This document shows positions 1 through 52,508 of a DNA stretch of 64,000 nucleotides, piece after piece. Every line of letters starts with the position of its first letter. The first letter of the stretch is position 1. The stretch is from assembly GCA_965153455.1 (NCBI GenBank), contig OZ234493.1, forward strand, positions 3,224,001 through 3,288,000, read 5' to 3'. The notes under the pieces are model-generated. The model worked only from the letters and a program-made list of their open reading frames with translations. It searched no databases and was not told where the DNA came from. The DNA is from Sphagnum compactum (lineage: Eukaryota). The translations under genes and the position numbers were made by a program.

Positions 1-179
1 AGTCATGATATCGACTATAGTTGCAAAATGATAATGCCATGTGGCAGCACAATGTCTTTTATAACTACATAGTCATTAACATGAACTTGTAGTTATAATT
101 GTAGTAAAAAAAAAATAGTTGTTTTATTAACCGGTTGTAAAACCTAAAATGTGTTGTTGGGGTTTTTTTAGGCACCATT

Positions 180-1260
180 GAGCTACTCTTGGCACCAAAA
201 GTAGCTCGGTTGTGCATAAAGAACGTGAGTTCAAGCTTAGGTCCGATTTTGAATTCGAACTTGAACTTGGGTTTTTTATGTTTTTTGGTTATAGACCTTT
301 CCAAACTATTCTTGGCATTAAGAGTAGCTCGGTGATGTAAGAACTCGAACTTGAGCTCGAGATTTTTTCTTTTGTCTTAATTTGTGTTTTTGTTTTTGTT
401 TTTTGCAAGTGTCATTGAGTTATTTTCGACACCAAGAATAGTTTTATTGCGCATGAGGAACCCAAGCTCAAGTTTGAGTTTTTTTTGCTACAAAGGTTGT
501 TGAGCTACTCTCAACATCGAGAGTAGCTCAATGATGTAAGAACTTGACCTCAAGCTTGGGTCCCAAATTGCACCCGAACTTGAGCGTAGGTTTTTTGTTT
601 TATTTTTATTTTTTATGTTCTTATTTTTGCAAGTGTCACCAAGCTACTCTTGACACCAAATTAAAGTAACTCAGTTGCACATGACAAACTTGAGTTCAAG
701 CTCAAGTGTTTTTTTTCTTTAAATTAATTTTTATTCTTATTGTAGACCTTGCCAAGCAAGAATTGACATCAAGAATAGGTTGACAATGCAAGAAAAACCT
801 GAGCTTGAATTTGAGTATTTTGTTTTTTGTTTTTCATTGTTTTTGCTTTCTTGTTTTCATAAGCATTATCGAACTACTCTTGATGCCGAAAGTAGCTTAC
901 TTGCGCTTGACAAACTTAAGCTTAAGTTTGATTTTGATTTAGGACTCAAGATTAAGCTTGGGTTTTTTGTTTTTTGTTTATTTGGTTTTTTTTTTTACAA
1001 GTGTTGTTGAACTATTCTCGATGCCGAGAGTAGCTGGTTGCACATGGGGAATTCGAACTCAAGCTTGGGTCTAATTTTGGACCCAAATTCGAACTCAGGC
1101 TTTTTCCCAAATTTTTTTGTTGGAAATATTGTTGGGCTATTTGGCCCAGTGCAAGATGATCTTGAGACATGAAGCTTGTGTTTTATTTTGAACCTAAGCT
1201 TGAACTTGAATTTTTTGCTTTTATTTTTTTTGGTTTTTTGTATTTTGTAGGTCTAAGTTC
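180..1260. repeat. Degenerate tandem array of ~85-140 bp units, each with a ~28-bp palindrome (GAGCTACTCTYGRCAYCRARAGTAGCTC), a second GAGCTC/AAGCTT-rich element and a T-tract
   Basis: Palindrome copies read at 180-207, 303-330, 417-444, 502-529, 641-672, ~754-782 (decayed), 871-898 and 1009-1036. The sequences between them are related (gaacttgagctcaagcttgggtcc-like). Confidence 0.85.
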
Positions 1261-1455
1261 GAATATGATTATAGTTTCCGCTTCCTTCCAAAGTAGTAGT
1301 CTAATAATTTTCGATTTGTTTTATAAGAACAAGTGAAAGAATCATTCACCATGGCCCCCGCAAGTGAAACAATGGAGGTCAATGTTCAAACATCACATTA
1401 ATTAATTTACATTTTCAATTTGCTTGTTAGGTATTGATTCATTTTTTCTTTCAAG

Positions 1456-4400
1456 GTTCACAAGTTTCAGAGGCTCCCCAACCCGTGGATAACATGTCCA
1501 TTGATAGGACTATCTAAACTGTCCAACAACAAAAGTTTAATTCGACTAAAATCCTTACAAGATGTTTTCGAGGAGGAAAGCACAGATGAACATCCCCGTG
1601 TGCAAGACGATTTCCATGCCTATTGTGCATCTTGCTTTCAAAATAAATGTTTTGAAAATGGAGTAGACATTTCAAAGTGGATACTATGAGGGAGATAAAA
1701 CATTTTATGTATTTACCCTGAATTGGAAGGGAGAGGAGGCATTTCTTGATTCTTATGTTGATTATTGGAATGCCCATTGGCATTCTGAAACGAGAAATTT
1801 GAGAACCTCATTCTTGGAGATCTAGATCCCAAGTTTTTTTCAAAGTGGATGTTTTTTGTGTGGGATGGCAACCATAGGCTGTAGGCCTGGTTGCCTTACA
1901 TCCAATGTGTGCACAATGAGGATCTTGAATGGCATTACTCAGTGGGTTTTAATTTGTTCGATACCTCACATAGTCTTGTTGAGCTCCTCATAGCCATGAC
2001 AAACCTAAGTAAGTTAATTTCCACCCTTCAATGATGTGTTGAACTTTTAATGGCATTCAAGTACGTTCTCTTTCAAAGCTTTGATGTTCTTAATTCCATG
2101 AAATGAATTCCTTCCTTGTTCCCAAATTCATGGAGTTTGATCATGTGCATCCAAGCCTTATGCATGAAATTTTCCACATCCAATCCATTAGCATCATTCT
2201 TCTAGAGCTATTCCAGAATGTTTTCTTAATGGATGTTTTCAAGAAATGCCAAAATAAATCGCACAAGACCTGGCATTCCTTTACATTTGAGACTTTTTTT
2301 TATTACATGTACAAGATTTGTAATCTTCTTTTCCCCATCCTTCACTGGGGAGTCCCCTCATTTCATCTTCTTATTTTTTTAGTGTTTGTTTCATTTGTTT
2401 CGTTTCTTTTCTTCTTCTTGCAAGGGGAGATCTTTTTAGTTGCTAATGTGGTAGTCAAGCTCTACTATGAAGAAATTCCTAACCCCGCAAAAAGGTCCAC
2501 AACCAATCTTCAAGAACACATGGAGAAGGCTATGGAGTAAGTTTGGAAGGACCGTCATTTGGCTTTCTACAAGCACCTTCCAGTTTGTGACCCAGCTCTT
2601 GGTCCATATTTCCTCAAGGAGATTCAAATTCATTATGACATAAATTTAGAGCTCGAAATGCTCACAAAAAAGCTTCAAATGTTGGCATACTCTTGTGTGA
2701 GTCCGTAGTAAAAACTCTTCTAATTCAAGCAAAGCAATAAGTCCTTTGTGCTTAGGGAGGCAAGGAAATTCCCCAAGCAAGGATTCTCAAACCAACGATT
2801 TGACAATTGGCTCCACAAGGCCACTTTTTGGCACTAGGTATTATTTCTTCCTCTATCTTGCATGCTTTGTTGTAACTTTGTCATTATTAGTTGTTGATCC
2901 ATTTAATTGTTTCATGCAATTGGAGGTTGAAGCTTTCAAGCAAGTTATGTCACTACAATCACAGATCTTGGATTGAGTGAATGGGATCTTCCAGAGATTA
3001 TCTCGCTTGCATCTTACATTCAAGAATGGTGGCAAACTATTTGGGAGATCTATTTTTTTGTGAGTTTAAGCCACCTAGGGACGACATGCGGAAAAACAAA
3101 TCACGGGAATAACAAATAGGAGGGAAGGAGGCTTTAAAATGAATGCTCCATAGGTCTACCATTTTGTTCCTTCTTCTATTACATCCATTATTCCCCTACT
3201 CTCAGTGCTAAGAGTAGAGGATGAAGAATAGTTCAGAATTCCAATCTTTTATTGCAACCTTCTTTTTTGTTTTTTGTAGGTACTTCTATCATGTCCTTCT
3301 TCCCATGGGAGCCATTGTCCAACTTCCCCTCCTCTTTGAGATTTGGCATGATCCTAAAATGAATAGGCGCACCATGTTTCATAAGGACCTTCTCAAGGAC
3401 TAGAGCTTCTCGAACCTTATTGATTACGGTTGGTATTTAAATTGTTTGAAGGACAACACTATAGTTTCAAAGTTTTCATTATGTTCTCAGAGTTCTCATT
3501 AGAGTTCTTTCCCCAAGAAATTTTACAAACTTCTGCAAGCATTCATATGTAGGAAATGAAGAAGGGGTCTACTTTGGAAGAAAAAAAATAAATTTGACAA
3601 AGCTAGACCTAGTTAGTGCACTGAATCTAGCAAGGAGATTTGCTTCAATGCAACTCTAACTTCTATTGTTGATTTGAATATTTCGGAATAGATCATTGAC
3701 TCCATGCCACCTTAGTTGGGTGGCCCTTTTTCTTCTCCATTTGGCATGCCGAACTCAAATTTTGAAAGCATGTGCCCAACTTGATTCACCGTCGTTCACC
3801 CAACTCCCCTTGTATTTCCACCTTTTAGGCCCCCTAGATAACATTATACTACTTTTCCATTGTCCTATTGATGAATTTCCAAGGAGATGGTTGATTCTAA
3901 AAAATGGCAGCAAGCATTTGAGAAGATTTTTATGTTCATTCATGAGGTCAGCCTATTTCAATGCATGCCACCTTTTTGTGATATTTTCCATTTCCCAATT
4001 GTATGTTGATTCTTGTATCTACCCACTTGTGTGCAAATCAATCCTAAGGACAAGGTGAACCATGTTCTTGTTGAGGGAACATTCTTGTTCCTTTGTTCTC
4101 CATAGAAATCCCCCTTTGGAACAAGTGAAGGGAAGATTGGATAATATCAATTTTTGATTTTGTACAAAAAAAAATTTGATTCTTGATGGGGATGTGCTTC
4201 TGTTCCACCCAAATGATCTTCAAGTTCTCAAGGAGATCAAGTCCTATTTGGAGAGCTATAATTTTCATATTTGCATGAAGTGGATGCTAATCAATTCTCT
4301 CCCAGTTGTAAGCTTTGAGGACCCCTCCTTGAAGGTATGAACTCCCATATTTTCTCTTCTTTCTTTGCATTCATATTCAAACATCCTTTTCTCAAATATT

Positions 4401-5008
4401 GTTTTTTAGAATGTTGTAGACCTTTGTGGGTTGGGTGACTTTTCTGGTTAGGGTTGTCAATCCCTCATCCTTTGCAATGAACTCGTTTCATTTTTCCCTT
4501 CCTTCTAAACATTTCCTGCAAAAAGGTATCAATGTTTTTGAAGAGGATGTCCTTTACAATTGGACGGACCATGTCCTCCATGTCTATGTCCAAGACTGGA
4601 AAGCCATTTTGAACGGCCAAGGAGCTCCATCCACTCACTCTCTAGGCCCTCATTTAAGTGTGTTCCAAAATAGGATCTTTATTGCCGACTTGTTTGCATC
4701 CCCAGGTAAAACATGGACTTGGGAGAGGGGACATAGCAAACTTGTTATGTCCTCCCAATCTCATGTTTTGTTTGTTTGTTGTTACTTTTGGTTTTCATTC
4801 ACATTTTTTTTGTAGGCAATAACATCAAGGCATGCCATGCCTTTCACCATCATATTTTGGCTCTAGAGCTAGACATGGACATCTTCACTAAGTTCTAGAA
4901 CCCCTGGTTTTTGTTCCCATCCTTGAGGCAACCTGCCTAATTGTTAACATTGATGATGAAAATTCCCTAGTGAAAAGGCAACCAAGGAGAATCTTGGATT
5001 GTGAGTAA
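1456..5008 (+). pseudogene. Decayed spliced gene: ParB/Srx-like N-terminal domain plus C-terminal beta-class (N4C/N6A-type) DNA methyltransferase domain
   Basis: From 1586: MNIPVCKTISMPIVHLAFKINVLKME*TFQSGYYEGDKTFYV...WNAHWHSE. From 1801: ENLILGDLDPKFFSKWMFFVWDGNHRL*AWLPYI. At ~4100-4335: IPLWNK*REDWIISIFDFVQKK/NLILDGDVLLFHP. At 4586-4705: GKPF*TAKELHPLTL*ALI*VCSKIGS/IADLFASPG. A GT-AG intron (4706-4815) is followed by GNNIKACHAFHHHILALELDMDIF. Many stops and frameshifts; both ends approximate. Confidence 0.7.
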
Positions 5009-5770
5009 GTTTGCTTCTATTTATTTTTTTCTATTTCAATTTCTTGCTCTTCCATCTTCCTTCCTTCAAGTCCTTATGCTATGGACTTGTTTTCAAATGC
5101 AAAGGTGTCCCCAAAATGCTACCTTTTTTTGTAATAAAGGATTTCAACTCTAGTCCCCCAAAGGACTTTTTATTACCTTCATATGTTGAAGCTCAAGCCT
5201 AAGTCTTTGCTTCCGAGGTTTCACCACCTAAGGTTAAGAATCCTTTTTTGTATGATCATGTAGTCATAACTTCATAGATGATGAGGCATTGGAGTGAGAT
5301 AGGTCATCTATTGTTGAACTCTGGGGTGGACCGCTTTGGCATGAGCCTTTGTGTGGTCTTCAGATCGGGTGGAGAGCTCTAATAAAGAAGTAATTTTCTC
5401 TTTTAAATTCTTATGTTACATTTTTTTGTATGACATTTTTTACTTTTCTTGCCCCTTTCCCATCATCGCGATTCCAATGTGAAGTTTTTACTTTCCGACA
5501 TATATTATCCATTGGAAATATCTAACATTCTTTATATTACAACATTCTCTGATTCACACATGTGGCCCTACTAATTACATGTGTAAATGAATATAATAGT
5601 TTCCAATGAATATTTATGGGAAAATGGCACTATTCGAAAAAAATCAAATACAGCCCATGTTTGGTGTTACACGGACATAATATTTAGTTTCCAAAAGGAT
5701 GAATGTTTGAAAGCATATGATTAATCAATTATGGACTTACATTTTTTTCAAATTTTGTGTTTCTATTTTT

Positions 5771-6280
5771 ATCACCCACTTTTCACCTATTCTTGGTGCC
5801 GAAAGTAGAGGATCGAAAATTGTTGAATTATCCAAGTAGGTTACTTAATGTCTCACTTTTCACAAGGAGTTAGGGATAGCAAATTGTTGGCCAACTTTGA
5901 GTTTTTTTTGGTGGCAATTTGGCCCAAAGTTTTTAATGAATGCTAGAACTTTGAAGTTAGGATATTAGTTTATCCAAAAATTTTGGCTCTTGGGGTTTAA
6001 TTTGCAAAATAATTAAAATTTGAAAACATACTCAATTCACGAATTCAAATTTTGGTTTAAAAATTTTCTCAAATTATGATTGAAAAGATTGCAATAATTC
6101 CTTACTACATAATGGCCAATGTGTATCATCCTATGTCTTTGTTATTTTCATCACCCAATTTTCCCCTATTCGCGGTGCCGAGAGTAGAGGATCAAAACTT
6201 GTTGAAGTGTCCAAGTAAGTTAGTTAAGGTCTCGTTTTACACTAGGAGTCAGGGATAGAAATCCTTGGGGCCAACTTTGA
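5771..6280. repeat. Diverged ~130-bp direct repeat (5771-5900 and 6150-6280), each copy carrying the same palindrome as the array at 180-1260
   Basis: atcacccacttttcacctattcttggtgccgaaagtagaggatc...ggccaactttga versus atcacccaattttcccctattcgcggtgccgagagtagaggatc...ggccaactttga. Confidence 0.85.
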
Positions 6281-9200
6281 ACTTTGGTTTATAAAATGTT
6301 CTACACGTTATGCTACTACTTCTTCTTCTTATTATCACCGGTATCATCTTTATCTATGTTGGACATACTAAGTAGTGTCAACTTCTCTAGGTGTGTTACT
6401 TGCATCATTGGAATTTGTTTTTGTCCTTGGTGATGTTGGTTTCATGCCTTCCTATTCTTCATCTATCATGACATCTTCAAAACATATTGTTTCTAGCATG
6501 TTGTTTTCTTCTTCGTCATCCAATATCGTCATTCTGCCACATGTGCATGATTTAGAATCCTCTTCCTCCACCTCGCTGCTAGTTGTATTAGCCTCCACCA
6601 ATTGGTCCATTACCACGGAGTGTGAAAGTATTGGTGTTTCATATGGATCATTTTTTTCATTTGAATCGTTTCTTGTCCATTTTTAAAAAAATGATTGAAT
6701 CGTTTTTTTTTTGGGGTTCTTGGAATTCAAACAAGTAATCACATTATTGATAAAATCGTGTTATGAAATTTTTATTTGTTGAGTTTGTTGGCCATGGATT
6801 GTCTTTAGGTGGTTACGGCAAGTTGTTTAGAAACTCCAATAAACATTTTGAACATTGTCCCATATATTTTGTAATCTTGCAAGTGGTTAGTAGATGCCTA
6901 ATATCCAACCTCTGCATGGAACTCTGCATTTACACTCTTTAGCCTTTTTTTTTCTACAAAAGGGTACAAATTCAAATTTGATGGTGTTTGACAAAAGTGC
7001 CATGGATATGGATATCGTGACATGATGCAATGAAAAAGTTCTATCCTAGGTTTTTTTTATAAAACCTTTCAACCTCAAAATAAACACTAGATTGAATGCA
7101 CATAATAACCCATTTTAGGAATGGGTTGGTGACATATTTGTAATTGTCCACTCAAATTTTTCATTTAAATTTAGCTTGACAACCATTGGTTTTGAATGGA
7201 CCATTTGGTTGGTAGTGGTGAGTTTAAAACAATAGCACATGCCAAAACAATTCCTAATGACAGAATAGTTGCATGTGTTTCAACAACCACAAAATCATAC
7301 ACTTGCTCATAATAATCATTTATTGCTCCGATTTGATATTTTCAATGGTTGTTTGCCTCAACAATCACTACAAATTTGTTCAGCATGCAATTTCAATATT
7401 CAAGTTCAACCCTCCTTTTATTTCTTTTTTCACAATTGAATATTTCCTTTTGAGGTCACATACTTTGAACAAATATTCATATTAACATGTGTATTGAACC
7501 ACAATTTAATGCAAATAATGGGGTTTTGGTTCCTTTTTCATTTTTTGACACATTTTCATATTCGACTATCGTACACCTCTTGTGATTTTGGGGATGACCT
7601 TATCATCTAACTATTCACTAAATGTTTTAACATTTTGTTCTTTAATTTTTGTGGCACCTAGGTTCGCTTGCCTAGAGTTGCATATAATCATTTTTGGGGT
7701 TTCATGAATTATGTTGGTAGCAAGTTGCCAAGGGTTACCAAATCCTATGTTGACAAATCATTCAATAAGCATGTGAAAAAATGTTTGGATTCAATTTCTT
7801 CATATTTGTGCATTTTTTGAAGAAATCCATGGCATGTGTAAACATCGCCCAATTGTAGTTTTCCATATCCTCCTTGGAAATGTTTATAGTCTGTTTGAAC
7901 AATGCAAGATTTTTTTTGTTCATTTTTGCATTTGCCCATCACCATGTCGCCCATTCATATGTTTCATCAATTTTCCTTTTCCATTTTGTTCACCATGTTT
8001 TGATTTCTAGTAGTTACCAAAAGGGGACTAGCTAGGTGTCATTTGTTGGATATTCCAAGGATTTTTTTGTCATCTCACATATTCTATTGAGTATGCTGGA
8101 AATTAATGTATCTTCAATCATAGATTCCAAGGTGTTTAGTTTGACAATTGGTGTCTATTTGCTTCTTGCCTTTGTAGAATAGAAATTTAATAATTGTAAA
8201 CATGTGGTAGAAGTAAAAAGGATGCAACTAGGCAGTAAGGGTGGAGTAAATGCAAATTTAGATATAGATCATGCAAATTAGTAGTAGAGGGGGGAAAGAA
8301 TGCAATTTGATTATATAATTAACAAGAATGGTCCTAGATGCAAGAGGTTGAAAAGATGCATGAAAATTAAAAAAATCATTAAATGGTGGTATAGACAATG
8401 TAAAATATCATCAATTATCTCATATTGTTTCAATTTCTAATGGGCACATGCCTTTTGGTTGTGAATAGGTAGTGTTTGGATTGGCACATACCTCTTGGTG
8501 GGTCAATAGGTTTATATGCCACATTCTATATGGTTTAAATGTTCCAAAACTTAATATATATCATAAATGACTAATAGTTTTATTGAAGATTATTCAACTA
8601 ATTTTTTAGATTTTTTAGGAAAACTGAGCATATATGTGTGTGTATGTATGTATTAGAATTAATTCTCAAAAGTTTAGGATCCATGGTCATAAATTAGAAC
8701 TAGTTTTTTTTTTTTGAAACCTGTCGATCATCTATGTGCCTTTATGATAAACTGTCCAACCTGGGTTTATCAGGGACATGCAATTTTGTACCACAATTTG
8801 GCAATTTGGCTCTAACAAACAACAACAAATAAATGATATGTTTATGCCACGGTACTTGCTAAAAACATGATGTGGGTGTGAAACTGGCATGGGGACTTAT
8901 TGTCTTCTCTTAATTTTTTTGTCATTGGACTTGTTGCAAAAGTATGGAACTCTAGACATCGTCATGCCAAAGGCATCTGAAGTACCATTAAACATTGTGA
9001 TGAATAAGACATGGGACAAAAAACTTATCTATGAGTTTGTTTATGATTCTTGATCTTGTAATTTTTTAGTTCAATTTCTTTTTGTTGGATCTCCATGGTT
9101 CCTTTTGAGTATACAATACAAGTTAGTGAAAATTATTGTCCTTATTTAAGAGGACAAATTACTTATACTCATGGTGTTTGCACATGTAGCTTATTCCTTA

Positions 9201-9794
9201 AGAATGAGAGGGATAATATGCCTATTTTTAGGTGTAAGACCCCTCCCACTATTTGGTCTCATGATCTACATATTTTTAGTTCATGAACACATTCCTCTCA
9301 TTTTTTGCAATGGGTAAAGTCCAAATGTGAGAAACATTCCCAATACATAGTGTGAGATGTAGCTATTACCTTGGCCTACACCTCTTTGGGTAAAGCCCAA
9401 GGGTGGGCAACATTCCCAAAATATACTTCATATTAAGCTAATATATAGTATGACTTGAAGTATGACTAAACAACATTTCATGTGTCAATTTTTTTTAAAA
9501 AAATCAATATAAAATTTTCCATCTTTTTTCTTTTGTTTAGTTTTCACCCCAAAAAAAAGATTGCCAATGCTCAAGAAAAAGTTCATCCAATTTCATTCTC
9601 ATCCACATTTTCATCTTGAAATGTCATTCATCCATGAACACGTGGTAAAATCCACATCATCATATATTATGTCCCATGTGTCAAATAATATTCTCCAAAT
9701 ATTCCATCAACATCAACAAAATATTCCAAAAAAGATTCTATCGTGCTCACCTACTCACTGCTCACACTCACACATTCACGAAATAACATCCCTC

Positions 9795-10450
9795 CATTAA
9801 TGTTGTCTTTTCAATAATGTAAAGTTCACAAAATGTTGGCAATGATGCTAAACCCATGTTCCAAAGGGCTAGGGCTATTCATTGAAGGAAAGAACATTAC
9901 AAATTGTAGGTGAATATGATTAGCACATGTTGTTTCCACTCTGGGTACATGCATTTTAATTTTTAAACCCAAGTGCTACAAGTAAAAGAGCTCTTAGTTG
10001 TACATAAAATAATATTGAAGGGGCATCACTATATCATTTCATGGAAAGATGAGGAGATGACATTAATGGTCACAAAACAATTAAATCGTTTCAAAATCAA
10101 GAAAGTCGGTGAAAAGGAATGCAAGGATCTTTTTGAATAGTGACAAAATCATGAATTGTATTTTTTATGTGTTGGGTTTGTGTCAAGACAAAATTTGGGG
10201 ATTATTGGGTCATTGATTGAAGTAGAAAGAGTTTTCAACATAATGCCCATATTTGCATAAATCTTCAATGCTCTTGTTTGGGGATAGAAACTCTTGAACT
10301 ACAAGTATAAGCATTTACAAAAATTGGCTAAAAGATGTTCATATGAGTTGTGCATTATCCATGGATGAATTCGACAATATGGAAAAACCCTTCAAGAGGA
10401 AAATGAAGATGTCATGGTAAAATTGGCCTTCTAAAGTTGGAAGAGGACAA
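9795..10450 (+). mobile_element. hAT-superfamily transposase remnant including the C-terminal dimerisation domain
   Basis: From ~9833: MLAMMLNPCSKGLGL, matching the hAT LDPRFK region. From 10081: LNRFKIKKVGEKECKDLFE**QNHELYFLCVGFVSRQNLGIIGSLIEVERVFN...IYKNW, matching the hAT DPLxWW..FP..AR..L...S...ERxFS pattern. Disrupted; no TIRs identified. Confidence 0.75.
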
Positions 10451-10899
10451 CATCAAATTTTGGGTATATTCTTTGTTGCCTTATTGATTTTTTACAAGTT
10501 CCATAAGTTTCTATTTTCAAGTTTCATTTTTTAATTAAGAGAGACACAACATAGCCAACATAATATTATTTTTTGTAAAATTGCAAGGGTTGATGGTGTT
10601 TGTTAGATTACAAGGAATCATGGTCTTTTTACTAGAAAAATTAGTCAATGTTTTTTCACTTTAGTCTTTTTGCCCCCCCTTGTTCCAGTAATGAGCAAAG
10701 TGGACAAGCTATTTTGAACCTGTTCATTTTGACTATTGTTTTTTGTACTATTGTTTTGAGCATTGTCAATATGTTAAAAAAAATTGTCAGTTTTAAATAG
10801 TGATTTTTTGGGCCAAAAATGAAATAAAATTGTTTCATTAAAAATATTAATATTTATTTTAAAACAATTTTGATAGTCGTTTATTAATGCAAGTTAGGT

Positions 10900-15519: not shown

Positions 15520-16215
15520 AACTAGGATGATATTTGTGCCAAAAAGTAGACCGCTAGGATGAATTTATGTCAAAACAGTTTGGATACTAGGATGTAATTT
15601 TGTCCAAAACAATTAGACCACTAGGATGAATTTGTTTAAAAAAGATTAAACCACTGGGGGGATTTTTCAATCCTAAATAGTTAGACTAATAGGATGAATG
15701 TAGTCCAAACCACTAGGATGAATTTGGTCCCAAAGGAGTAGACCACTAGATAATTTATGTCCAAAAAGATTAGGCCACTAGGATAAATTTACATGTCCAG
15801 AAAGAGTAGACCACGAGGATGAATTTACATGTCCAAAAGGAAAGGAGTAGACCACCGGGATGAATTTACACATCCAAAAAGAGTAGACGATGAGGATGAA
15901 ATTTACATGTCTCAGAAGAGTAGACCACAAGGATGAATTTACATGTCCGAAAGGAGTAGAACATGAGGATGAATTTACATGTCCAAAAAGAGTACGAGGA
16001 TGAATTTACATGTCTAGAAGAGTGGACCACGAGGATGAATTCACATGTCGGAAAGGAGTAGAACATGAGGATGAATTTACATGTCCAAAAAGAGTAGGAG
16101 GATGAATTTACATGTCTAGAAGAGTAGACCACGAGGATGAATTCACATGTCGGAAAGGAGTAGAACATGAGGATGAATTTACATGTCCAAAAAGAGTACG
16201 AGGATGAATTTGGAC
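15520..16215. repeat. Minisatellite of 31-40 bp units (AGGATGAATTTACATGTCC..AGAGTAGACCAC) with a 102-bp higher-order repeat
   Basis: About 19 units. Units A(31)-B(35)-C(36) occur at 15965-16066 and again at 16067-16168, followed by A at 16169-16199. Units decay towards 15520. Confidence 0.95.
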
Positions 16216-16637
16216 TAAATTAGGGCCCCACAAACAAATACTTACGGATTCTTTGAAAATATTGAAACTAGTAGGCGGAGATGGGGAGGGGGGGGGGGGG
16301 GGGTGGGGAGGGTGCTTCAAATTCGTTCCAGTTTTTTTCCCCATCCTAGAAACAAAGGCCGCACTGGTATCCACCCCGTTACAGAAAGACAAGTCATAAT
16401 TCAATAAATTAAAAAATCGGAAAACTGTCTCTGTAAGTCTGGTAGTCTGGTTTCCCCCTCCCCTCCCCCATCCTTCTTCAGTGGGCTACTTAATTCTTTA
16501 TAAAGAAAGAGAGGGGGAAAAAAAAAAAAAAGCACACACACACACACACAGAGCCCAGGCAGGGTTGCCGCGCGGGAGTAGACAATGGGCAGCAGCCGCG
16601 CGGCGGCCTGATTGAACAGCGGTCAGACCACCCTCCC

Positions 16638-17295: not shown

Positions 17296-20200
17296 ATGGT
17301 GACGAGAGGTGGCGGCAGAAGAGGTGGAGGAGAGAAAAGCAAAGAAGTGGATGGAGCGAAAGACATTGGCTCACCCGATAGACGCGATCCTATAGCTGCA
17401 TCAAACCATCAGGTATGTGTTTGCATTTCACGAGAAGTGTCACTGAAGTCCGTGGCTTGCTTGTGACATTAAGGATTGAGTGTCGTCGGCTAACAATCTT
17501 GCTGATCTATGCCCACGATCATAATGAGATGAGGTACAGCTGATATGTTCTGGGAGGAACGTTCATGGCAGTAGGAGGAAACTGAAACACTGGAACTCTG
17601 GTTTGCACCAAGTGTCCATCAATTCATCTGCTCATCAACATTCGAAGACCTGAGTGCTGTTGAGCATTAGGTTCCGTAGCAGCTTGCTGCTGATTGTATT
17701 TTGGAACTGCGCTATTACAGTTCTTTTTTCTTAATGGTAGTCAGCAGGATTGGTAATTAGGCCTGATAGATTGTCAATTTTTCTCTCTGCATGGCAGTGG
17801 TGTTGATGGACCAGCAGTGAGCCTCAATCCATCCTTGAATGATGTGATTGTCTCTTTTAGGGTCCTGAATTCTGCAGCAGGGGTGAAAAAGGGAGCTCAA
17901 ATTATGAGCCATGATGGTCTAACATTGGAAGGAAATGATTTTGGTGTTGCAGGAGTCTCCTCTCTTCAAATACCTGTGCAATTTATCTCCAATCAAGCCA
18001 CTGAAAGCTGTACATGTTGCACATACCTACAATGAGCTAACCTTCCCACCTGAACCACGCATATTTGCATCTCCTCGCAGCACCCAGAGGGCTTCATCTA
18101 GTTCATTAAAGAGGTAAGTAAGCAGGAGAGTGGTGATTGAATCTTTTTTCAGATGCACTGTAGGGCTTGTGGCTGATTCATCTCCAGTACATTTTGGCAG
18201 ATTTGTCCAGTTGTCTGCAGGCTTACCAGACTGATGCCCCATGTTCATAGTCTTTCTCGGTTGCTCTACTAAATTAGCTCATTGCTCAAGAGGATATGTG
18301 CTTGGGAACTAGTGTGCAAACTCTTATATTGACTGTTTCCTTCTGTCTATTCCAGAGTTGTGGTTTCAGAACGTGAGATCAAGTCGCAGTTTGCAAACAT
18401 TCGGCAAGCGGTGAAAGCAAATCCACAAGATACTGCAGTACCTAAGTTTGAGAAAGTTGCAGAGTTCAATGAGGATCATTCAGCTAGGTTGTGGATGTAT
18501 GAGGAACAAGCTGAAGCTTCCCTCAGGGCCAAATTCTTACAAGACTTCCCTCCAGAGATGGTTGATTCTGTGTCAGTGATCATCAATGACCAAGTTTCAG
18601 AGAGTTGTGATGGAGGATTGAAGAGAAGCTCTGCCTTGGACGCTGGATATCGTGATCATCATCTGAGTGTTAGACATGGTGGGGAGGCTGAACTTGATCA
18701 GGACACCACAGCAATGGCATACCTCTTGGCTGGGGATCAAGACTTTGAGCCCCAAGACAAAGAGGATGATTGGTCTGAGGACTCACTGGAAGGCTCTAGG
18801 GTATCTGCATGCCGAACATCTGAGTATCCAAAAGCTCTTAAGGATGATTTTTGTGAAGATGTCAATGTGGACATGAACACTCAGCTGGCTAATGAGGGGT
18901 CTGTTCTACAAGATCAATCAATGGTGCTGTCTCACACGGTATGATGGATGGCCTCAAACGGATCCATTTGCAATTGAAACAATGCATCTTAGAATGCCTG
19001 TATTGATTACCTGTAGTATGGAGGCCTCTAAGAAATTGACAAGTCTGTGTTCATTATTCTTTTCTGGCTGTTTGTCTACTTCTAATGTCTGATAATCATC
19101 CAAGACAACACCTTTATGACTTAAGTCATGAGACATGTTTGTTGTGGATCTGTTGCCCTGCCAAATAGATGAGAGCTTGGTCAGGGCATGTTGAAAGTCT
19201 CCAATGGACACAGAAGTTCTTGATCAGAAATAATGTATGAATGTGCAGGTCAATCCATCTGGGCAGCACCGAGGATTTCGAAGGCGATGCTTAGATTTTG
19301 ACACATCTGTAGCAAGAGGAAAGAATTTGGATACAGGCAGGAGATCATTACGACGCAGGCAGAGTATTGCAGATGTTTCTCCCTCAGTCGCCAGTGCTTC
19401 TGCTGCGGTTTCCTGTGAGAGAGCATCTGCAGCAGTTGATGCGTCCATGAGTGGATTCTCAATGTCTATGAGTGATCTGCTGAATGCAAAGGAGTGCGCA
19501 CAGGCAATGTTTAATTCTAGTGCACCTGCTACAGGTATTTTTGCTCTCTTGAGAGTGGTGCTGCTGATGTTGCTCCCTTCTAGTGCCCCATATGGGTTGG
19601 ACGTTCAAACTACTGTTAGCGAACAGCTTTGTCTCCATACTGGCATCAGCACAATATCTTGGTTTCTACTGGTTTTGTAGGCACATAATAATTGGAAAGA
19701 TGTACAGTAACCAATGGTCTTTCCACTGGTGCAGGAACAGTGGGCCTTGGTTGCAATGGTAGTGCTGGAGCTGCATCTGGCCTGTTACAAGTCTCTGGTT
19801 GCTGCATTACAGCAGGGTTGGAACCTTCTTCTGTTTCAGGTTGCTCAGGTGCACCTGTTTGCAGAACTCAAGATCTCAGCAAATGTGAAGGAGGCAATCA
19901 CACATTCAACGAGTCTAGCAACCAGGGTTGTAATCCTCTGGTGATGCCTTCCGGAATTGGCCTTCACCTTAATAGCCTTACTAGCAGCATTTCTTTCAAG
20001 CGGGACTTTCATTCAACTAGAGTTGGAAACTCAGAGGGAACCTTGGCATCAATTTTGGGAGTTGAACCATTGAAATCTGCAAGTCTCAAGGGCGATCAAT
20101 CTGATGTCTGTGCCCAAGTAGGCATGGGAAATGAGGGTCCCCCTGTGATTGCAAGTCAGAGTTTTGGTTCTGGAGTGGCATCATCATCACAAAGGAGCCA

Positions 20201-23200
20201 AACAGGGAAACAGTTTTCAGAATCTTTGCTGGGCAATAATAGTTTAAAGGTTGACACTTTGGACTTCCCGTCCCTGGATCATGAGAGTTATGGACCACCA
20301 GAAGGCAGCCTATCAGTCACAGGTGGAGATGCTATGGCTGGCTGCAGGAGTATAATTGGGCAGACAGGATTGCAAGAGCAGCAGACTGACCTTTTCCATC
20401 AGAGTGAGGTGGAAACTCCAGAAGAGTTTCTGGACAGTCCACAAAGCTTTAAGAAAAGGAGGTAAGTCTTGAATTTATTGAGATAAGCCACTGAACCTTT
20501 ACAACTTCAAGAAAAGGATCACCTGCCTTCTTTTGCGTAATTGCCTGGAGGGGAATTGCCTATCACTGGTTGTTTACCCTTGGCATGTCACTGCTAATAG
20601 TTCATGTAGGTTGTAAGCAGCTATCTTGAGTCAGTGCTTGGCAAGAGTTCTCCTTCCAGAGTAGGAGGTCACGTGAAACTTGATTTGTGCAGGCGGAAAT
20701 CAACAGTAGCTTCAGGAGATAAGTCTGGAGAAGGCTGCAAACGCTGTAACTGCAAGAAGTCCAAGTGCTTAAAATTGTGAGCTTGCGAAACACCAGCTTA
20801 CTTTTCTTGTCTTGGTTTTCTGAAGCACATTAAGCACGGAAAGTAACCTCAGAAGGACCAGTAGGATTCACTCATTGAAGTCTGGATTGTAGACATCTGA
20901 TGCCTACATACAAGTCCATCATTCCAGTATAAATGCTCTGCATAATGAGGTGTATTACACTTACAGAGTCATATGTTGATAGTTGCACTGATGCTGTCAA
21001 GATGTGGACTCCTCCTGGTGAGAAAGGAAGCTCTCTGTCAGGTTTTCAGATTCAGTGTGGTCTCTATGGTCTATGGCTCTGATGTGGCATATTTGAATAT
21101 TTTATCATGTGAAATGAATAATTTGTTGTGTTGCCAACATGCCCTTTAAATAGCTAGGATGAACTATGTTGTCTTGTTTGACCCATGCCATCTTGTACCA
21201 GCGTACTCACCCCATGTTGCACAAAAGTTCAAGCTCAATGAGAGACCATCATTGCAGTTGCTGGATCAATTATGGTTTTATTTGGGATTTGGAATGGTGT
21301 ACTGATTTTGCTTTTGATATTGAACTGTGTGACAGATATTGTGAATGTTTCGCTGCTGGCATATACTGTGTGGGCTCCTGTGCATGCCGTGAATGTCTCA
21401 ACAAGCCAGAATTTGAGGAAACAGTTCTCAACACCAGGCAGCAGATTGAATCACGCAATCCACTTGCATTTGCCCCAAAGATAGTTCAGGCTGCTGAGAT
21501 GTCCCCAACACCTGGGGTAAACTGTCTTATTATACCATTCACATTCTCCATCTGAATCCTGATTTATTTCCTTACACATTCAATGAACATGTGCCCAATT
21601 GCTCATTTATTTCCTTACACAACTGACCTATTTTCAAAAGTAGCAGACCTTGATGCAGTTGTGGGGTTTTGTAGGAAGATTCTATGGATACACCAGCATC
21701 AGCCAGACACAAGCGTGGTTGTAACTGCAAGAAATCTCTTTGCCTTAAAAAGTACTGCGAGTGCTATCAGGTAGGTGTCTGTTTGGCCTCACTGACCCTA
21801 GTGCTGTGTCTGTTCCTTGCTGCAGCTCATTCCTGCATTTGTTTTAGTCAACTCAGAACATTCTCTCTAAGGGCTGTGCAGCATTGTTGATTACCTCTCT
21901 GGCATCTATTCTGTTACAGCATCTTATAAGCTCATTCTGGCACAGCGATAGTCCAGGCTTGTGAGGCTAGTACCTTAAGAGTAAGCAAACAGGGTACTCA
22001 GTATGTATCAATGTTTCCAACAGCTAGTGATCAAAGACATTGAACAAACTTCTCATGCAAGTTCTTTTTCTGTCTGCTTCATATTCTCTTGGTGGTGCTA
22101 TTGTGCAAAGTTTTAGATGTCAGAGATATTTGAATTTGACAGAAGCACCAGTGGATCTGGTTGTGCAGGCAGGTGTGGGCTGCTCAGAGGGCTGTCGTTG
22201 TGAAGGTTGCAAGAACATGTTTGGCAGAAAAGAAGGTAATGTCTTTCATTTCTACCTTTTCCCCACATTGTAAAAAGTATCTGTACCACATCATGATTGC
22301 AGTTTCAAGAATATTATTCAATCTGCTTGTGGTTAGTTCCTCAGTACTCAATACTAGGGATAGTGCTATGGAACTGTTTGCTATGTCAGTGTCCTGCCCT
22401 TGCAACTGCCTTTGTATGAGTGGTAAGTAAATGCACGTTTTGCAAATATCATAACAAGAAGATTTGGTGGCACTGCAGGTCTATGGGGTCTGTGTGCCAG
22501 ATCCAAGACTGTACTGTTCAACTGAAATGCATTAGTTTTGACAAATATATTGTCTTGTGCTTTGCTGTGACATCATTAGAGCTCTATGATGCATGAACGC
22601 TTTCTGTGACCCTAAGGAGTTCCACTCAGCAGTGACAGGCATGATTTGTCAGTTTTTAGGGAATGAATGCTTCATTGCATCTGAGTGATGCCAGAGAAAC
22701 AAAAATGTTGAATGTCCAGTTTTTTGTCCTTTGTAACAAGGTTCTGATATCCATTCATTTAGGGGACCTCATCTAGACCATGTTGTAGGGTTTGAGCAGT
22801 CTACATTGTCAAAGGCATCCTTCCAGACTATGGTAGTTACTGGGGCATATTTGTGAATGTTCACTGTCCATGCACATTGAGATACAAATTGGATCTAACT
22901 GTCAAATTATGGATATTCTCTCAGAGATGCATACAAGATCTCTGATGGGCATGTTCCAAGAGGTCCAGATTGGCCTGGTGTATTAGTCAGAACCTTGGGG
23001 ATATCCAACAGATTCAATTATGGAGCTGAGGACCAAGGCATAGGTTCTACCTACAGTTGTATTGATGCACAAGCAACAGAATGTGATGAGTATCTTACAT
23101 TTCATGTCATTGCATGTCTTTTCTGCAGGATCCAGAGAAGAAGAAGAAAAGGATGGAAACCAGGTTTTCACTATGCAGGAGGAGCCTCAAGCAGATGACC

Positions 23201-24401
23201 CAATTGAGTTGCTGAATAGAATGAGTGGCAAATCAGAACAGTTCCGGTCCAGTGGGAACAAAAATATTTCTCCAATCACTCCATCCTTTGAGAATGATGG
23301 GTATGAACTTGCGAGGAATTAATCTATTCCTGTTTGTAAGCTCCAGAATTGCAGTATGTTAGAAATACATGTCACATTTTGAGCCCTTGAAACTGTTTGC
23401 TCTGGAAACCCTTGCTTTGGCCAAAATTGGAAGTTTAGGGTATTCTTTGGCCAAATTGGCTTCCCCAATTTTGATGGATTGCTGCTATTCCTATTTGAAT
23501 TTGCCACAACTATCTAACAGATCACCATTGGGACATGATGTTTTTGTGCAGGATGGGGCTGAGATCAGCAAGCAGGAAGCGTGCTCCTCATGATGAGCAT
23601 TGCAGTTCTCCCTTACTGCATCAGGCTGGATCAAGGCTATCCAAGTTTCCAACCTGGTTCTCAAATACATTAGATGGATTTCAGTTGGCTGCTTACTCAC
23701 AAGGTGCAATGGAACTCTCAATGAGTGGAGGGGGTGAATCCCCTATGACTACCATGAATCTCTCAAGGATTGGCCATCTTTCTCCTCAATGGGAAGGCCT
23801 TGCTGACATTTGCACCCTGACACCGCTGCCAATGGCCCCACCTCGGCCCACACCAACCTCTGTCACAACCTTAGATAGGTCTGGACTGTCTCCCTGTTTT
23901 AGTTCACAGTTAATTGATCCCTCATGTAATGGTGGGTCTTCTGCCACCAGACACAATCATAGTCTGGGCAAGCTGCTGAGAAGGTCACCACCCAGATTTA
24001 GACAGCCAGCTGCTCGGTCTCCATTGAATTTCAAGACTCAGCAGGATAGATGCAACCAGAATCAATCTTTGTCTTCAACCCATCTGTCACAGGAGCACTC
24101 ACAAGGTGGGAAACACAATGCTCTGTCAATCAATTCAAGTGGAGAAGATGATGACATCCATGATTCCTTGAGATGCCCAGAAGTTGCTTCTCCACTCCAG
24201 ACCACCATCACCAAGTCTGGGTCCCCAAATCAGAAGCGGGTGAACCCACCACGACAAGGTGGTTCCCTGGAGCAGGGGCCAAGTAAGGCTGGTGGTGGAA
24301 TGCTGATGAGCTCGTCTCCTGGGCTGAGGAGCAGTTGCAAATTCACTCTCCAGGCACTTCCCTCCCTGCCACCACTGACTCCACCATTCAGTTGCAGTTG
24401 A
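17296..24401 (+). CDS. Tesmin/TSO1-like CXC (CRC/CPP domain) protein, LIN54/DREAM-type, ~1107 aa, 11 exons
   Basis: Exons 17296-17412, 17953-18113, 18356-18938, 19249-19534, 19735(or 19708)-20461, 20693-20776, 21336-21516, 21675-21770, 22169-22235, 23129-23300, 23552-24401; all GT-AG and in frame. Motifs: [37 protein letters not shown]1 [19 protein letters not shown], hinge [15 protein letters not shown]2 [29 protein letters not shown]. Confidence 0.93.
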
Positions 24402-27400: not shown

Positions 27401-27468
27401 CTAGCTTGCTGCTGCTGCCGCCCTCATTGCCCTCAATTTTCGACAGCCCTCACAATTTGATTCCTTTG

Positions 27469-30400: not shown

Positions 30401-31316
30401 TGTCTATATACTCTGCTCCCTCATAGCTGCGGACTGCAGGACTACGGTCAAAATGTGCATAACCCCTCAAGTATGGATCCTGATCCTGCAGAGGCCTTTC
30501 ATTCACGCTGCTCCTTCCTCCACCCACAACTCTTCGATCTGCTCCTGAATGATAATGGCGATCAGAGAGAGCTGAGAAGCTTCGCAGGGAGTCAAAGTCA
30601 ACATTGCTAGCTCTTGTATTCAAGCCATGGGTTTGTACACGCTGCCATGAAGAGAGTAATGCCCCACTTTCATCTGCAAACATGCACAGGAAGTGCTGAA
30701 ACATGTCAGGAAGTGGATACACAATCTGCAGCACAGGCGCATGGAATTCCCTTGAATGAACATATAGGAGAGTATCATACTTCCCATGTATACACAGCAA
30801 GGACATTGGCAGCATACTCTCCCTTCAGTCAGAAGCCCCAAATACATTTCATCAGGGCTTTAAAAACTGTACACTGGAAACCCTTGCAAAGAAGGCTGAT
30901 TCCTACTGTGTTCATAAGAAGCCACACTTTCTCACAGGAAATGCATATCAGCATCTGTGTACAAGAATGTACACAGATGCGCTCTACCCAAAGCCCCATG
31001 GTGCTGATGAGCTGTGGTGGGTAGTCCAATTTCTAACAATTGAGGACCTTTGCATACCTATATTTCAAGCTACATGTCTTCTGCTCAGTCACTTTGAGGA
31101 CAAACATGACACCTACTTTGCAGGGCTACAATATGATCACTGCAAAACAAGCACAACCTGGAAACATCAAGAATGATATAGTTCACCACAAAGGAGGAAT
31201 AGAGCAGGAAACAAACCTTGGTGGACCACAGAAGGTTGCACATGATGGGTAGCCCCAGCAGTCCCACTGGCTCCCTTGAGCCATTCTGGCACCAAGGATG
31301 GCTCCCTTCTATCCAT
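27469..31316 (-). CDS. Uncharacterised low-complexity plant protein (resembles the Arabidopsis At1g36990/At4g08510-type family), ~812 aa, 5 exons
   Basis: Exons 31316-31217, 30673-29616, 29349-29260, 28888-27875, 27645-27469; GT-AG, in frame. Recognised blocks: MDRREPSLVPEWLK, FERNFPTLG, GWSSALAEAP, QRLEELALKQSRQLTP, DFFNALRKK, EEETAFLRSLGWEEN, LTEEEISAF. Family assignment is from memory. Confidence 0.85.
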
Positions 31317-51232: not shown

Positions 51233-52352
51233 CCGTATTGCAAAGTGTAAAGATGATTAGCAATTGACTTTTCTTTTTCTTTTTCTTTTTTTTTCTTTTT
51301 TTTGGGGGGGGGGGGTTTTGAGTTGGCCAACAGAATGCCCCTTTTTGATTGGGCTTCAGAGAATACCTACTTCCTTTCCTTAGCAAATGGTTTTTTGGTT
51401 ACCATAAGAATTTGGAGTTTTGGTTTTGTTGATATTGTGCTTAGATTCATTATAGAGTATAGTAGCTTAAGGTATTTTTATAGGCCCCTACATAATTTAA
51501 TAATAGGTCTATTTTTATATGAGGATTATTGAAAGATGAATATTTTGGCTTGTGTTGAAACTTGAGATTAGTTACAGAGTTATATCATATCTTGAAGGAT
51601 TTTGGTTTTTTAGAGGATTTGGTTTGAAGATTATATTTCTGCATGGTGAAATATTTGAATTTTCATAATTCTTCTTTTGCCTTAAAATACTTTATTAATG
51701 TAAATGGCAAGGCCAGAGTGTGACATGCCCCTTTTGTTTTATGTTTGGTATAGGAGAAGGGTCTACGTCTAGGGTTTAGGTTTAGACCCTTCACTTCCAC
51801 CAACAAATGGCAGATTTTTAAACCACTTTTCAGCACTCTTTTGATGCCTTTTTTCGTTGTACATTATGAGTATTACAATGCTTTCATCATTTTTCCTCTT
51901 TGTTTTTGCTTGATTTGATGAGCTTTCTGGCGATTGTCATAAAATAACCAGAAATCATATTTTTTGATTGTGTTTATGGGTCTTTACGTGCTTTGTGTCA
52001 ATAGTTGTAGATCAAGTTAGAAGTTTGTTGTCATCTTTGCATTTTGTGTTTCCATGCATTTGTTTTTTTTTTTTTAAGGTGCCTTTCACTCCGATGCATT
52101 TGTTGTGTTTGGTTTATATTTTGATTTTTCTTAAACTCTTGTGTTTTTTTTTCATATTGTTCAGATTTTTTACAACTTTGTAAGTCAAAATTGGTAGTTT
52201 CTATTTGTGTATTTATTTATTTTTGGTTTTGGCATTTGTCTATTGTGTGTAGCTCCATTGATGCAATTTCCTATATCAAGAGAGTTGCAACGACAATGAA
52301 ACACAAAAGCTAAGATTGGTACATCTCTCATGAAAAAAAAAGCTCATGCAAG

Positions 52353-52508
52353 TGTTGTTGGGAAGTAAGAGAAAAAAAACAATAAAAATAAAAAACATAG
52401 AGAGAGAATGAAAGAATGATTGGTAGATTGTGTTGTTGGGAAGTAAGAGAAAAAAAATTATAAAAATAAAAAACATAGAGAGAGAATGAAAGAATGATTG
52501 GTAGATTG
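52353..52508. repeat. Near-perfect 78-bp tandem duplication
   Basis: tgttgttgggaagtaagag...gattggtagattg at 52353-52430 and 52431-52508. Confidence 0.95.

Follow-up and report, generated by a model that had tools for sequence, protein, structure and literature searches.

Genes that combine a ParB-like domain with an N4C/N6A DNA methyltransferase domain have been published as accessory genes of transposons from brown, red and green algae (Dinatale et al. 2025, PMC12477816, which cites Iyer et al. 2011 for green algae). For instance, Sola1-1_Ec32, a 21.5-kb transposon from Ectocarpus, is described as carrying an accessory gene of this type, 1,104 amino acids (aa) long, with the Sola1 transposase encoded on the opposite strand. 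The authors of that article suggest that such accessory proteins may bind and epigenetically modify their own element. Plavaka elements from Bostrychia are described as carrying the cargo genes PAG2 (N6A methylase and SET domain) and PAG3 (ParB-like domain and 2-oxoglutarate oxygenase), with tandem inverted-repeat arrays beside PAG3 (Petroll et al., bioRxiv 10.1101/2025.02.11.637652). Iyer et al. 2016 (PMC4738411) delineated eukaryotic N6A methyltransferase clades, some of them coming from phage ParB-terminase loci; the available part of that article does not mention a ParB fusion in land plants. Two eukaryotic enzymes are also relevant, namely Marchantia MpDN4MT1a/b, bryophyte writers of N4-methylcytosine (4mC) that have a TSPPY motif and are encoded by a sperm-expressed tandem gene pair (bioRxiv 10.1101/2021.02.12.428880), and rotifer N4CMT, a methyltransferase fused to a chromodomain (PMC8885841). 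Here, we analyzed a 64,000-nucleotide (nt) stretch of the moss Sphagnum compactum (GenBank GCA_965153455.1, contig OZ234493.1, positions 3,224,001 to 3,288,000), hereafter called the window. In our preferred reading, to which we give a probability of about 0.6, positions ~1559-5290 (+) of the window are a pseudogene of a land-plant family of ParB-methyltransferase proteins, located in a dispersed repeat that is most likely a DNA transposon-like element, with the gene as its accessory gene in the manner of the algal Sola1 and Plavaka ones, and with a C-terminal domain that is more likely altered or inactive.

A preliminary description, made from the letters of the window, had proposed a dead, intron-bearing fusion of a ParB-like domain and an amino-methyltransferase at 1456-5008. 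The peptide strings that it quoted, the DGNHR motif and a phase-1 GT-AG intron are all present where it had placed them. The relic on the plus strand is real as well, and its span had been drawn too short: a tail exon extends to ~5290 and the repeat unit to ~9773. The gene copy at 1559-5290 (+) has several exons and is decayed: ~13 in-frame stops and at least three frameshifts were counted in it. In its 5' part, IPVC...MPIV...GYYEGDKTFYV is read at ~1592-1720, in a frame other than that of DGNHR, whose codons are at 1864-1878. In its 3' part follow IPLWN (4108-4122), ILDGDVLLF (~4176-4205), GKPF*TAKELHPLTL*ALI*VCSK (4586-4670; asterisks are stops) and IADLFASPG, which is joined to NNIKAC...HILALELD over an intron running from GT (4706-4707) to AG (4814-4815) in phase 1.

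These strings are backed by homology. The piece 1789-2034 retrieved four proteins, the best of them at 65% identity (E 7.4e-26), and tblastn with proteins of the family against 1550-2100 gave E-values of 1e-19 to 1e-33. Local profiles made from metagenome loci matched 4158-4337 (E 2.3e-23) and 4737-4895 (E 3.9e-14), and 4574-4684 is 54% identical to the equivalent exon of locus L013 (tblastn, E 2.8e-10). Peptide strings and homology matches are far beyond chance expectation. Furthermore, the relic is collinear with two metagenome contigs, L004 (4,830 nt) and L001 (3,912 nt), in which every homologous exon is open. On their exons it falls into eight segments (1559-2019, 2124-2339, 2619-2828, 3272-3445, 4078-4355, 4574-4705, 4816-4895 and 5074-5211 or beyond). 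The features of the gene relic are the following (L, metagenome loci; P, proteins).

1559-2019 (+): exon 1 relic, encoding the ParB/sulfiredoxin (Srx)-fold domain; tblastn with P0001, P0002, P0003 and P0015; L001/L004 exon 1, E ~1e-19 to 4e-20
~1664-1666 and 1882-1884 (TAG) (+): stops of the exon 1 relic; frameshift near 1786-1789
1556-1663, 1789-1881 and 1885-2013 (+): matches of the N-domain profile in the exon 1 relic
2124-2339 (+): exon 2 relic, start of the ~600-aa middle region; L001 606-929, E 6.7e-6; L004 1071-1325, E 2.3e-4
2553-2828 (+): middle-region exon relics with three in-frame stops; 2619-2828 against L004 1617-1958, E 3.2e-7
3272-3445 (+): middle-region exon relic with one in-frame stop; L004 2218-2967, E 5.2e-5
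4057-4355 (+): methyltransferase-like core exon, motifs IV to ~VIII; profile Ea at 4158-4337, E 2.3e-23
4574-4705 (+): exon with motif X and motif I, the S-adenosylmethionine (SAM) motif (GKPF*TAKELHPLTL*ALI*VCSK.. / IADLFASPG); three in-frame stops, one frameshift
4706-4815 (+): phase-1 GT-AG intron directly 3' of the last motif I glycine, read from the sequence
4816-4895 (+): motif II exon (NNIKACHAFHHHILALELD), early stop at 4896-4898; profile Ec, E 3.9e-14; L004 3837-4106, 50% identity
5074-5290 (+): C-terminal tail exon relic (..LPSYVEAQA*.., NPFLYD); L004 4121-4483, E 2e-5

Stops are spread over most of these exons: exon 1 and the core exon have two each, 2619-2828 and the motif X/I exon three each, and 3272-3445 and the tail one each, in addition to the one at 4896-4898. 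Since stops and frameshifts lie inside aligned exons, the window copy is dead and has no function. Mismatches between the window and other copies have a strong codon periodicity in bins 1800-2700 (p 1e-4 to 8e-20), in keeping with selection on the gene in its intact copies. In the bin of the exon 2 relic, p is 4e-8; in bin 2400, it is 8e-20, and 2553-2693 there has a weak match to residues 429-472 of the Riccia protein P0158 (E 0.88). In the core exon, tblastn with L004/L001 exons covers 4078-4176, 4188-4301 and 4194-4355. The site of motif IV (~4063-4080) reads CSC*GN, with a TGA at 4072-4074; it is followed by a stop at 4126-4128 and a frameshift near 4157-4164, after which ILDGDVLLFHPNDL... 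is read. Besides L013, the motif X/I exon matches L030 (43% identity, E 1.9e-7). In L001 and L004, the motif I exon likewise ends right after ...TG and the next exon opens with xxI..C..L.RHI.A.E. The tail motifs LP.Y..E.A and NPF.DD are present, by eye, in the tails of Riccia P0184 and P0190. A Pfam search of the three read-through frames of 1456-5010 found no family; therefore, the domain assignment rests on the intact relatives.

To find these relatives, a profile of the N-terminal domain was built from four proteins and searched against 1.84 billion representative proteins. The four seeds have the pattern IPLCR..M..VRP....GY..G...FY.S...W...W...NE.FE....MFFVWDGNHRL.AW....WHYSV in common. 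With E-values of at most 1e-3, 1e-10 and 1e-30, the search gave 888, 388 and 45 representative proteins, respectively. Most matches are short and stop at one and the same profile position, as is expected of single-exon gene calls on short contigs. The named members come from the liverwort Riccia sorocarpa and from the ferns Adiantum nelumboides and A. capillus-veneris, and the neighbors nearest to the Riccia protein in a language-model Atlas are two Streptophyta clusters of 62 and 55 members. Related proteins of Riccia sorocarpa are 1,100-1,250 aa long (full-length models, 1,089-1,244 aa), and Adiantum fern proteins belong with them. P0158 (1,207 aa) has the DGNHR domain at 169-323, a long middle region, motif IV at 961 and motif I at ~1,130. 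Residues 930-1207 of this protein, used as a query, retrieved 13 further Riccia paralogs with 50-94% identity, located on several large contigs of eight different lengths. Intact members are thus proteins of ~1,000-1,250 aa with an N-terminal ParB/Srx domain, a ~600-aa middle region of no recognized fold, a C-terminal methyltransferase-fold domain and a short conserved tail. One Riccia sorocarpa protein, P0193 (1,048 aa), has two tandem N-terminal DGNHR domains (173-300 and 381-497), a genuine duplication or else an effect of gene-model merging.

In metagenome contigs, a pattern scan confirmed 145 loci, 80 of which were kept and collapsed to 46 distinct clusters. The N-domain exon is open in 7 of the 46. 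Among these seven open copies, the four pairs of N-domain exons with a synonymous rate (dS) above 0.05 have ratios of nonsynonymous to synonymous substitution (dN/dS) of 0.08-0.18. The family is mostly decayed, some of its copies are intact, and the intact ones are under purifying selection.

The N-terminal DGNHR domain is predicted to fold as a ParB/sulfiredoxin domain, owing to the purity of the list of structural matches and to the near-invariant DGNHR. An AlphaFold2 (AF2) model, made from an alignment of 47 sequences with the relative P0006 as its first row, reached a predicted local distance difference test (pLDDT) score of 86.5 and a predicted template modeling (pTM) score of 0.75. In the 47 sequences, four residues of DGNHR (G, N, H and R) either do not vary or are conserved to at least 90%. 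In the ParB/Srx fold, a motif of the D-G-x-H-R type located at a strand-to-helix turn is the nucleotide- or phosphate-binding site. A Foldseek search of the Protein Data Bank (PDB) gave no match at E of 0.001 or below; its leading rows (E 0.02-0.9, probabilities mostly 0.6-1.0) are nearly all ParB, Noc, PadC, sulfiredoxin, SbnI, free serine kinase and KorB. VIA-align, which is independent of Foldseek, found 14 of 48,161 chains with Z of at least 2, the first 12 of them with the ParB/Srx fold. KorB leads the list (Z 7.8, root-mean-square deviation 2.5 Å over 90 residues); the others include PadC (Z 7.5), pNOB8 ParB-N (Z 6.5), Arabidopsis sulfiredoxin (Z 6.5), SspE, Spo0J, BrxU and Osa. Among sequence searches, Pfam gave a DndB match for P0030 (E 0.19). 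A search of PDB sequences with the N-domain profile returned ribosomal eL24 alone (E 0.0032, 52 residues), which we take as spurious.

The C-terminal domain is, according to profiles and to its model, predicted to have the circularly permuted (beta-class) amino-methyltransferase fold. The family profile of this domain (alignment A4) aligns with M1.HpyAVI over the whole domain (positions 663-874 against residues 19-228, E 1.2e-5) and with CcrM at E 0.02; M.MboIIA and TTHA0409 are non-significant (0.53 and 0.82). The Pfam family N6_N4_Mtase (PF01555) matches the Riccia proteins P0158, P0156 and P0159 with 23.7, 26.2 and 24.8 bits (E 5e-5 to 9e-6); in P0158, the C-terminal domain aligns with positions 168-218 of 221 (E 5.2e-5). 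A precomputed PF01555 match is on record for 1 of the 13 Riccia paralogs (P0185). PHROG DNA methyltransferase families match with E-values down to 8.7e-7, and NCBIfam gave one sub-threshold DNA methyltransferase match alone. Furthermore, Foldseek with the model of the domain gave 96 PDB matches at E of 1e-3 or below, led by CcrM (6.7e-11), M1.HpyAVI, M.BceJIV, M.MboIIA, M.RsrI, rotifer N4CMT (2.6e-8), M.PvuII and Type III Mod subunits, then METTL3. Motif IV precedes X-I-II in the Riccia, fern and locus sequences, as in the permuted beta class, and the window keeps this order (4063-4355, then 4574-4895).

The catalytic motif of this domain is unusual. In the alignment with HpyAVI, lDlPsg of the family sits on the DPPYN of the enzyme. 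Motif IV reads D[LM]P[ST]G in 14 of 14 Riccia sequences and DVPFG or DFPIG in the ferns. In 18 distinct segments from metagenome loci, it reads DYPEN, DIPEN, DVPRN, DIPRN, DIPWN, DVHGN, DILGG, DMLGG, DVLGN or NILRN. The signature (D/N/S)PP(Y/F/W) was found in none of the 14 Riccia, 2 fern and 18 metagenome-locus sequences, and the site in the window is broken by a stop. Hence, the caveat of the preliminary description that no DPPY or SPPY is visible at ~4050-4090 holds, and it extends to every relative examined. The SAM motif I reads IDFAGGWG with ..IVAE in Riccia, LDCHAMTG, LDWNASTG or VDFITSTS with ..ALEED in the loci, and IADLFASPG with ..ALELD in the window: the motif I aspartate and the motif II glutamate are retained, the glycines partly so, and the glycine-rich loop is degenerate in the group nearest to the window (CHAMTG, WNASTG, FITSTS). 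Given the motif IV readings, a standard writer of N6-methyladenine (6mA) or 4mC is the less likely identity of the C-terminal domain, which we would rather take for a DNA- or SAM-binding module whose catalysis is altered or lost.

The two halves belong to one gene. In addition to the C-terminal domain with which they were retrieved, 8 of the 13 Riccia paralogs have the N-terminal domain; the remaining five look like truncated gene models. Among the metagenome clusters, 21 of the 46 have at least 3.5 kb 3' of the N-domain exon and could be used to count collinearity. In 16 of the 21, the methyltransferase core exon follows the N-domain exon on its own strand after 1.85-6.7 kb; in 11 of the 21, the motif II exon likewise lies downstream in this orientation. 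No upstream or opposite-strand match to the C-terminal exons was found in the 21 clusters; in five of them (L048, L053, L057, L060 and L074), the core exon was not found. The C-terminal locus profiles used here were seeded from L001 and L004; the motif X/I exon profile gave two matches, so that tblastn was used for this exon. Two other routes were unproductive: the window piece 4158-4337 searched against the longer proteins gave 16 candidates, none of them significant, and a C-terminal profile made from Riccia alone was too distant for the six-frame translated loci (best E 0.017).

The gene relic is part of a larger unit, a dispersed repeat that measures at least 8.5 kb (window ~1300-9773). 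The window is collinear over ~1304-9773, at 71-77% nucleotide identity, with L067/68, L070-72, L035 and others, and distant subfamilies have the block 6283-8538 in common (70-77%). All copies end within ~40 nt of window position 9773, at a common ...ATAACATCC motif, and diverge beyond it. Two further features of the unit are the following.

178-1036 (no strand assigned): array of ~28-bp palindromes, core CTAYTYT-N7-11-ARARTAG, spacing 85-230 nt; repeat family D1 and inverted pairs I1-I3; directly 5' of the gene relic
5300-9773 (no strand assigned): downstream part of the repeat unit, no recognizable coding content; collinear blastn matches at 70-77%, ending at ~9737-9773

The palindrome in its strict form occurs at 183, 306, 505, 874, 1012, 3196 and 5787, that is, seven times in the window, all within 183-5787, against a mean of 0.05 in 100 shuffles. 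L035, L059 and L077 also have comparable arrays, at most 1.5 kb 5' of their N-domain exon. Copies of a palindrome-bearing 63-nt repeat are also found within the element, at 3182-3244 (in an intron) and at 5773-5835 and 6152-6214 (in the downstream tail), and the tail has a 119-nt direct repeat pair (5764-5882 and 6143-6261, 84% identity). Blastn matches to 5300-9773 come from L067, L070-72, L038, L030, L043-46, L033-37, L019/20 and L013-17; 8538-9420 has no counterpart in other copies. Between subfamilies, this tail has 70-77% nucleotide identity, at or above that of the coding exons of distant subfamilies (63-66%). It gives translated matches in all frames on both strands. A weak codon periodicity in bins 6900-7800 (p 0.03 to 2e-5) was not counted as a gene, and Rfam found nothing in 1-10500.

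Other sequences occur near the copies. An ~820-900-nt segment, which may be a repeat in its own right or may belong to a larger version of the element, lies 1.5-5 kb upstream of the N-domain exon in L019, L030, L031, L034, L040 and L063/L073, in both orientations and sometimes several times per locus. By eye, L048 carries a hAT-like transposase relic (2173-3618), L053 a SWIM/MULE-like open reading frame (760-1269) and L038 a retrotransposon integrase-like one (20054-20356); each is confined to its own locus. Likewise by eye, L013 has a B-box zinc-finger-like sequence (3630-4106, minus strand) and L042 a receptor-kinase-like one (1465-3213, plus strand), ordinary host genes 3.6-6.4 kb upstream of the copies; therefore, the 5' extent of these two copies is limited. 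Elsewhere in the window, 42741-44687 (-) is an open frame of 648 aa with a high content of S, Q, G and H and without a Pfam family, which looks like a large low-complexity exon of a host gene. The region 18333-30824 is richer in GC (0.40-0.47); its two strands carry several open frames, 200-430 aa long, for which Pfam gave no match. Tandem repeats are found at 15764-16219 (five copies of a 102-nt unit) and 52352-52507 (two copies of a 78-nt A-rich unit). Short repeats in inverted orientation at 51431-51738 and 39543-39801 match L060/L061 and L033-37 (81-87%) and L018/L032 (72%), respectively.

Several other explanations have to be weighed against our reading. That the two halves are unrelated neighboring relics, or chance matches to motifs, would agree with the blank Pfam scan of the window frames; it is close to impossible, and we regard it as refuted by homology E-values of 1e-14 to 1e-33, by profile matches and by the collinearity of the halves in 16 of 21 loci and inside single annotated Riccia proteins. 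The preliminary description had staked the fusion on matches to ParB and amino-methyltransferase folds or profiles and on collinear copies elsewhere: the former came from AF2, Foldseek, VIA-align and the M1.HpyAVI profile alignment, the latter from these loci and from 8 of 13 Riccia paralogs, and a dead ParB/Srx and beta-class fusion with introns is what the stops, frameshifts, folds and profile matches describe. A relic of an integrated virus or phage-like element with a ParB-methyltransferase gene, for instance a giant-virus insertion, is very improbable. Its appeal lies in phage N6_N4_Mtase and ParB_N fusions that appear among the Atlas look-alikes, below the reliable score (0.82-0.83), and in ParB-linked methyltransferases being described as typical of phage ParB-terminase loci (PMC4738411); against this, the gene has many exons with conserved intron positions, no viral genes were seen in the flanks, and tblastn of P0158 against 50,697 phage records gave three records, each with a 46-residue motif I match (E 0.03). 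Pattern scans for the N-terminal domain, which detect close relatives only, gave 45 matches with none confirmed on viral contigs and 59 with none confirmed on prokaryotic genome contigs. The ultimately prokaryotic or phage origin proposed in the preliminary description is at most suggested by likeness of fold and profile and by weak Atlas leads. The preliminary description had also envisaged that intact relatives might write 4mC or 6mA, and this idea is weakened. We consider it unlikely that they are active N6-adenine or N4-cytosine DNA methyltransferases marking the element or the genome, even with the beta-class fold and motif order, the conserved motif II acidic residue, FAGGWG in Riccia motif I and strong purifying selection, and with functional eukaryotic enzymes of this fold described in Marchantia (MpDN4MT1, bioRxiv 10.1101/2021.02.12.428880) and rotifers (N4CMT, PMC8885841). 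Such writing is doubtful because every member examined is of the D-x-P-x-G/N type without (D/N/S)PP(Y/F/W): motif IV is D-x-P-x-G/N in the 14 Riccia and 2 fern sequences and D/N-x-(P/L/H)-x-G/N in the 18 locus segments, with the second proline and the aromatic residue in none, motif I has degenerated in the relatives nearest to the window, and MpDN4MT1 is described with a canonical TSPPY. Since the fold is present but the defining motif fails, we do not class the family as functional N6A/N4C methyltransferases.

The term "mobile" used in the preliminary description is likely right as far as a dispersed unit of at least 8.5 kb goes, and is not borne out by a transposase, terminal repeats or target-site duplication, none of which was found. 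This leaves room for the explanation that the relic is a pseudogene of an ordinary host gene family, expanded in particular lineages by birth and death, and that the 8.5-kb unit is a segmental duplication. We hold this to be rather unlikely. It would account for the missing transposase and termini, for the many introns and the dN/dS of 0.08-0.18 of intact copies, for the Riccia paralogs annotated as normal genes on several large contigs, and for the host-gene-like frames a few kb upstream of copies in L013 and L042. It fits less well with an N-domain exon open in only 7 of 46 distinct copies, with a discrete 3' end and non-coding flanks common to copies at 70-77% identity across subfamilies, with the dispersal of copies beside unrelated sequence, and with an equal architecture described for a transposon accessory gene in algae (PMC12477816). 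Several points weigh against our preferred reading of an accessory gene in a DNA transposon-like element. Besides the transposase, terminal inverted repeats and target-site duplication that were looked for in vain, no transposase is common to the copies, the transposase-like frames seen by eye near L048 and L053 being private to these loci; Sola-type transposases may lack a Pfam model. The 5' limit of the unit could not be fixed, and the window begins inside the palindrome array. A six-frame Pfam search of 5001-9802 found no significant family (KH_PARP14_4 alone, E 0.15), and translated similarity in the downstream 4.5 kb does not favor one strand (3,267 bits on plus and 3,593 on minus; gene control 3,316 and 1,854). 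An intron-rich gene under purifying selection, present in a liverwort and in ferns, would also fit an ordinary expanded host gene family. As for the domains, the structural scores of the N-terminal one are middling (Foldseek E at best 0.02, Z 7.8 in a range that VIA-align calls common); Pfam is blind to it and, even at E up to 1-10, reported no ParB family for the 4 short and 9 longer members scanned; the three Riccia proteins scanned lie just under the curated N6_N4_Mtase cut-off of 26.7 bits; the AF2 model of the C-terminal domain is of moderate confidence (pLDDT 58.2, pTM 0.59); and no helix-turn-helix or other DNA-binding domain was found in the middle region with Pfam, PDB sequences or the Atlas. 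The likeness to the algal accessory proteins, as these are described, is one of architecture, size, repeat context and adjacent inverted-repeat arrays. Finally, it is purely by inference that the ParB-like part, together with the middle region, would bind the palindrome arrays of its own element, as ParB binds parS.

If the protein does bind these arrays, the methyltransferase-like part might then act on the palindrome-array DNA or hold it, and so influence the chromatin state of the element. A bolder and rather doubtful version is that old and still partly active large DNA elements exist in land plants (in liverworts, ferns and moss-like metagenome genomes), whose sole recognizable gene encodes a ParB-like protein that loads on its own palindromes and carries a re-tooled beta-class module, with D-x-P-x-G/N in place of DPPY. 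This would be a self-recognizing device for marking the element or for counteracting silencing, possibly with a chemistry or a substrate unlike 6mA/4mC, and the element would perhaps be mobilized without a classical transposase.

Cargo of the ParB and amino-methyltransferase type has recently been seen in giant transposons of algae, where such proteins were put forward as a new accessory class that would bind their own element and modify it epigenetically. Land plants are now shown to have an abundant family with this algal-type architecture, and it offers experimental handles: the full-length proteins of Riccia sorocarpa, the palindrome arrays as candidate binding sites, and an unusual catalytic motif that predicts an altered or lost activity. 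The function of such accessory proteins thereby becomes testable in model-adjacent bryophytes. Moreover, ParB-methyltransferase genes should not be taken as evidence for 6mA or 4mC in plants.

Compared with known systems, the plant family is close in plan to the accessory gene of Sola1-1_Ec32, which is described as having the two domains in one protein of 1,104 aa (against 1,089-1,244 aa) in a long repeated element. It differs in that a transposase is identified there and none was found here. Plavaka elements, as described, likewise carry ParB-like and amino-methyltransferase domains as cargo and have inverted-repeat arrays beside the ParB gene, comparable to those at 178-1036 of the window; unlike in the plant family, the domains are on separate proteins with other partners, the transposase is of the DDE type and the host is a red alga.

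Among prokaryotic systems, fusions of ParB_N and N6_N4_Mtase from phages and plasmids, the nearest named Atlas clusters after the plant family (scores 0.82-0.83, leads only), have the ParB-like domain first and the beta-class methyltransferase second, as in the plant family. Unlike its members, they are 372-530 aa long in the Atlas rows, lack the 600-aa middle region and have both domains recognized by Pfam. Such fusions normally keep DPPY. M1.HpyAVI, CcrM, M.MboIIA and M.RsrI resemble the plant family in fold and in motif order (IV...X-I-II), with a profile alignment that spans the whole domain, whereas the plant family differs from these solved beta-class enzymes in lacking the PP-aromatic core and in having an extra ParB-like domain and a long linker. 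MpDN4MT1a/b and N4CMT also have a beta-class amino-methyltransferase fold in a eukaryote; their descriptions include no ParB-like domain, and TSPPY is absent from all plant family members examined.

A literature search found no description of a ParB-methyltransferase family in land plants, although supplements or Iyer et al. 2011 might hold one. The novelty implied by the preliminary description is lowered by the publication of the domain pairing as an algal transposon accessory gene (PMC12477816). The plant family joins this algal kind of accessory gene: its occurrence in land plants is new, and the pairing of its domains is already published.

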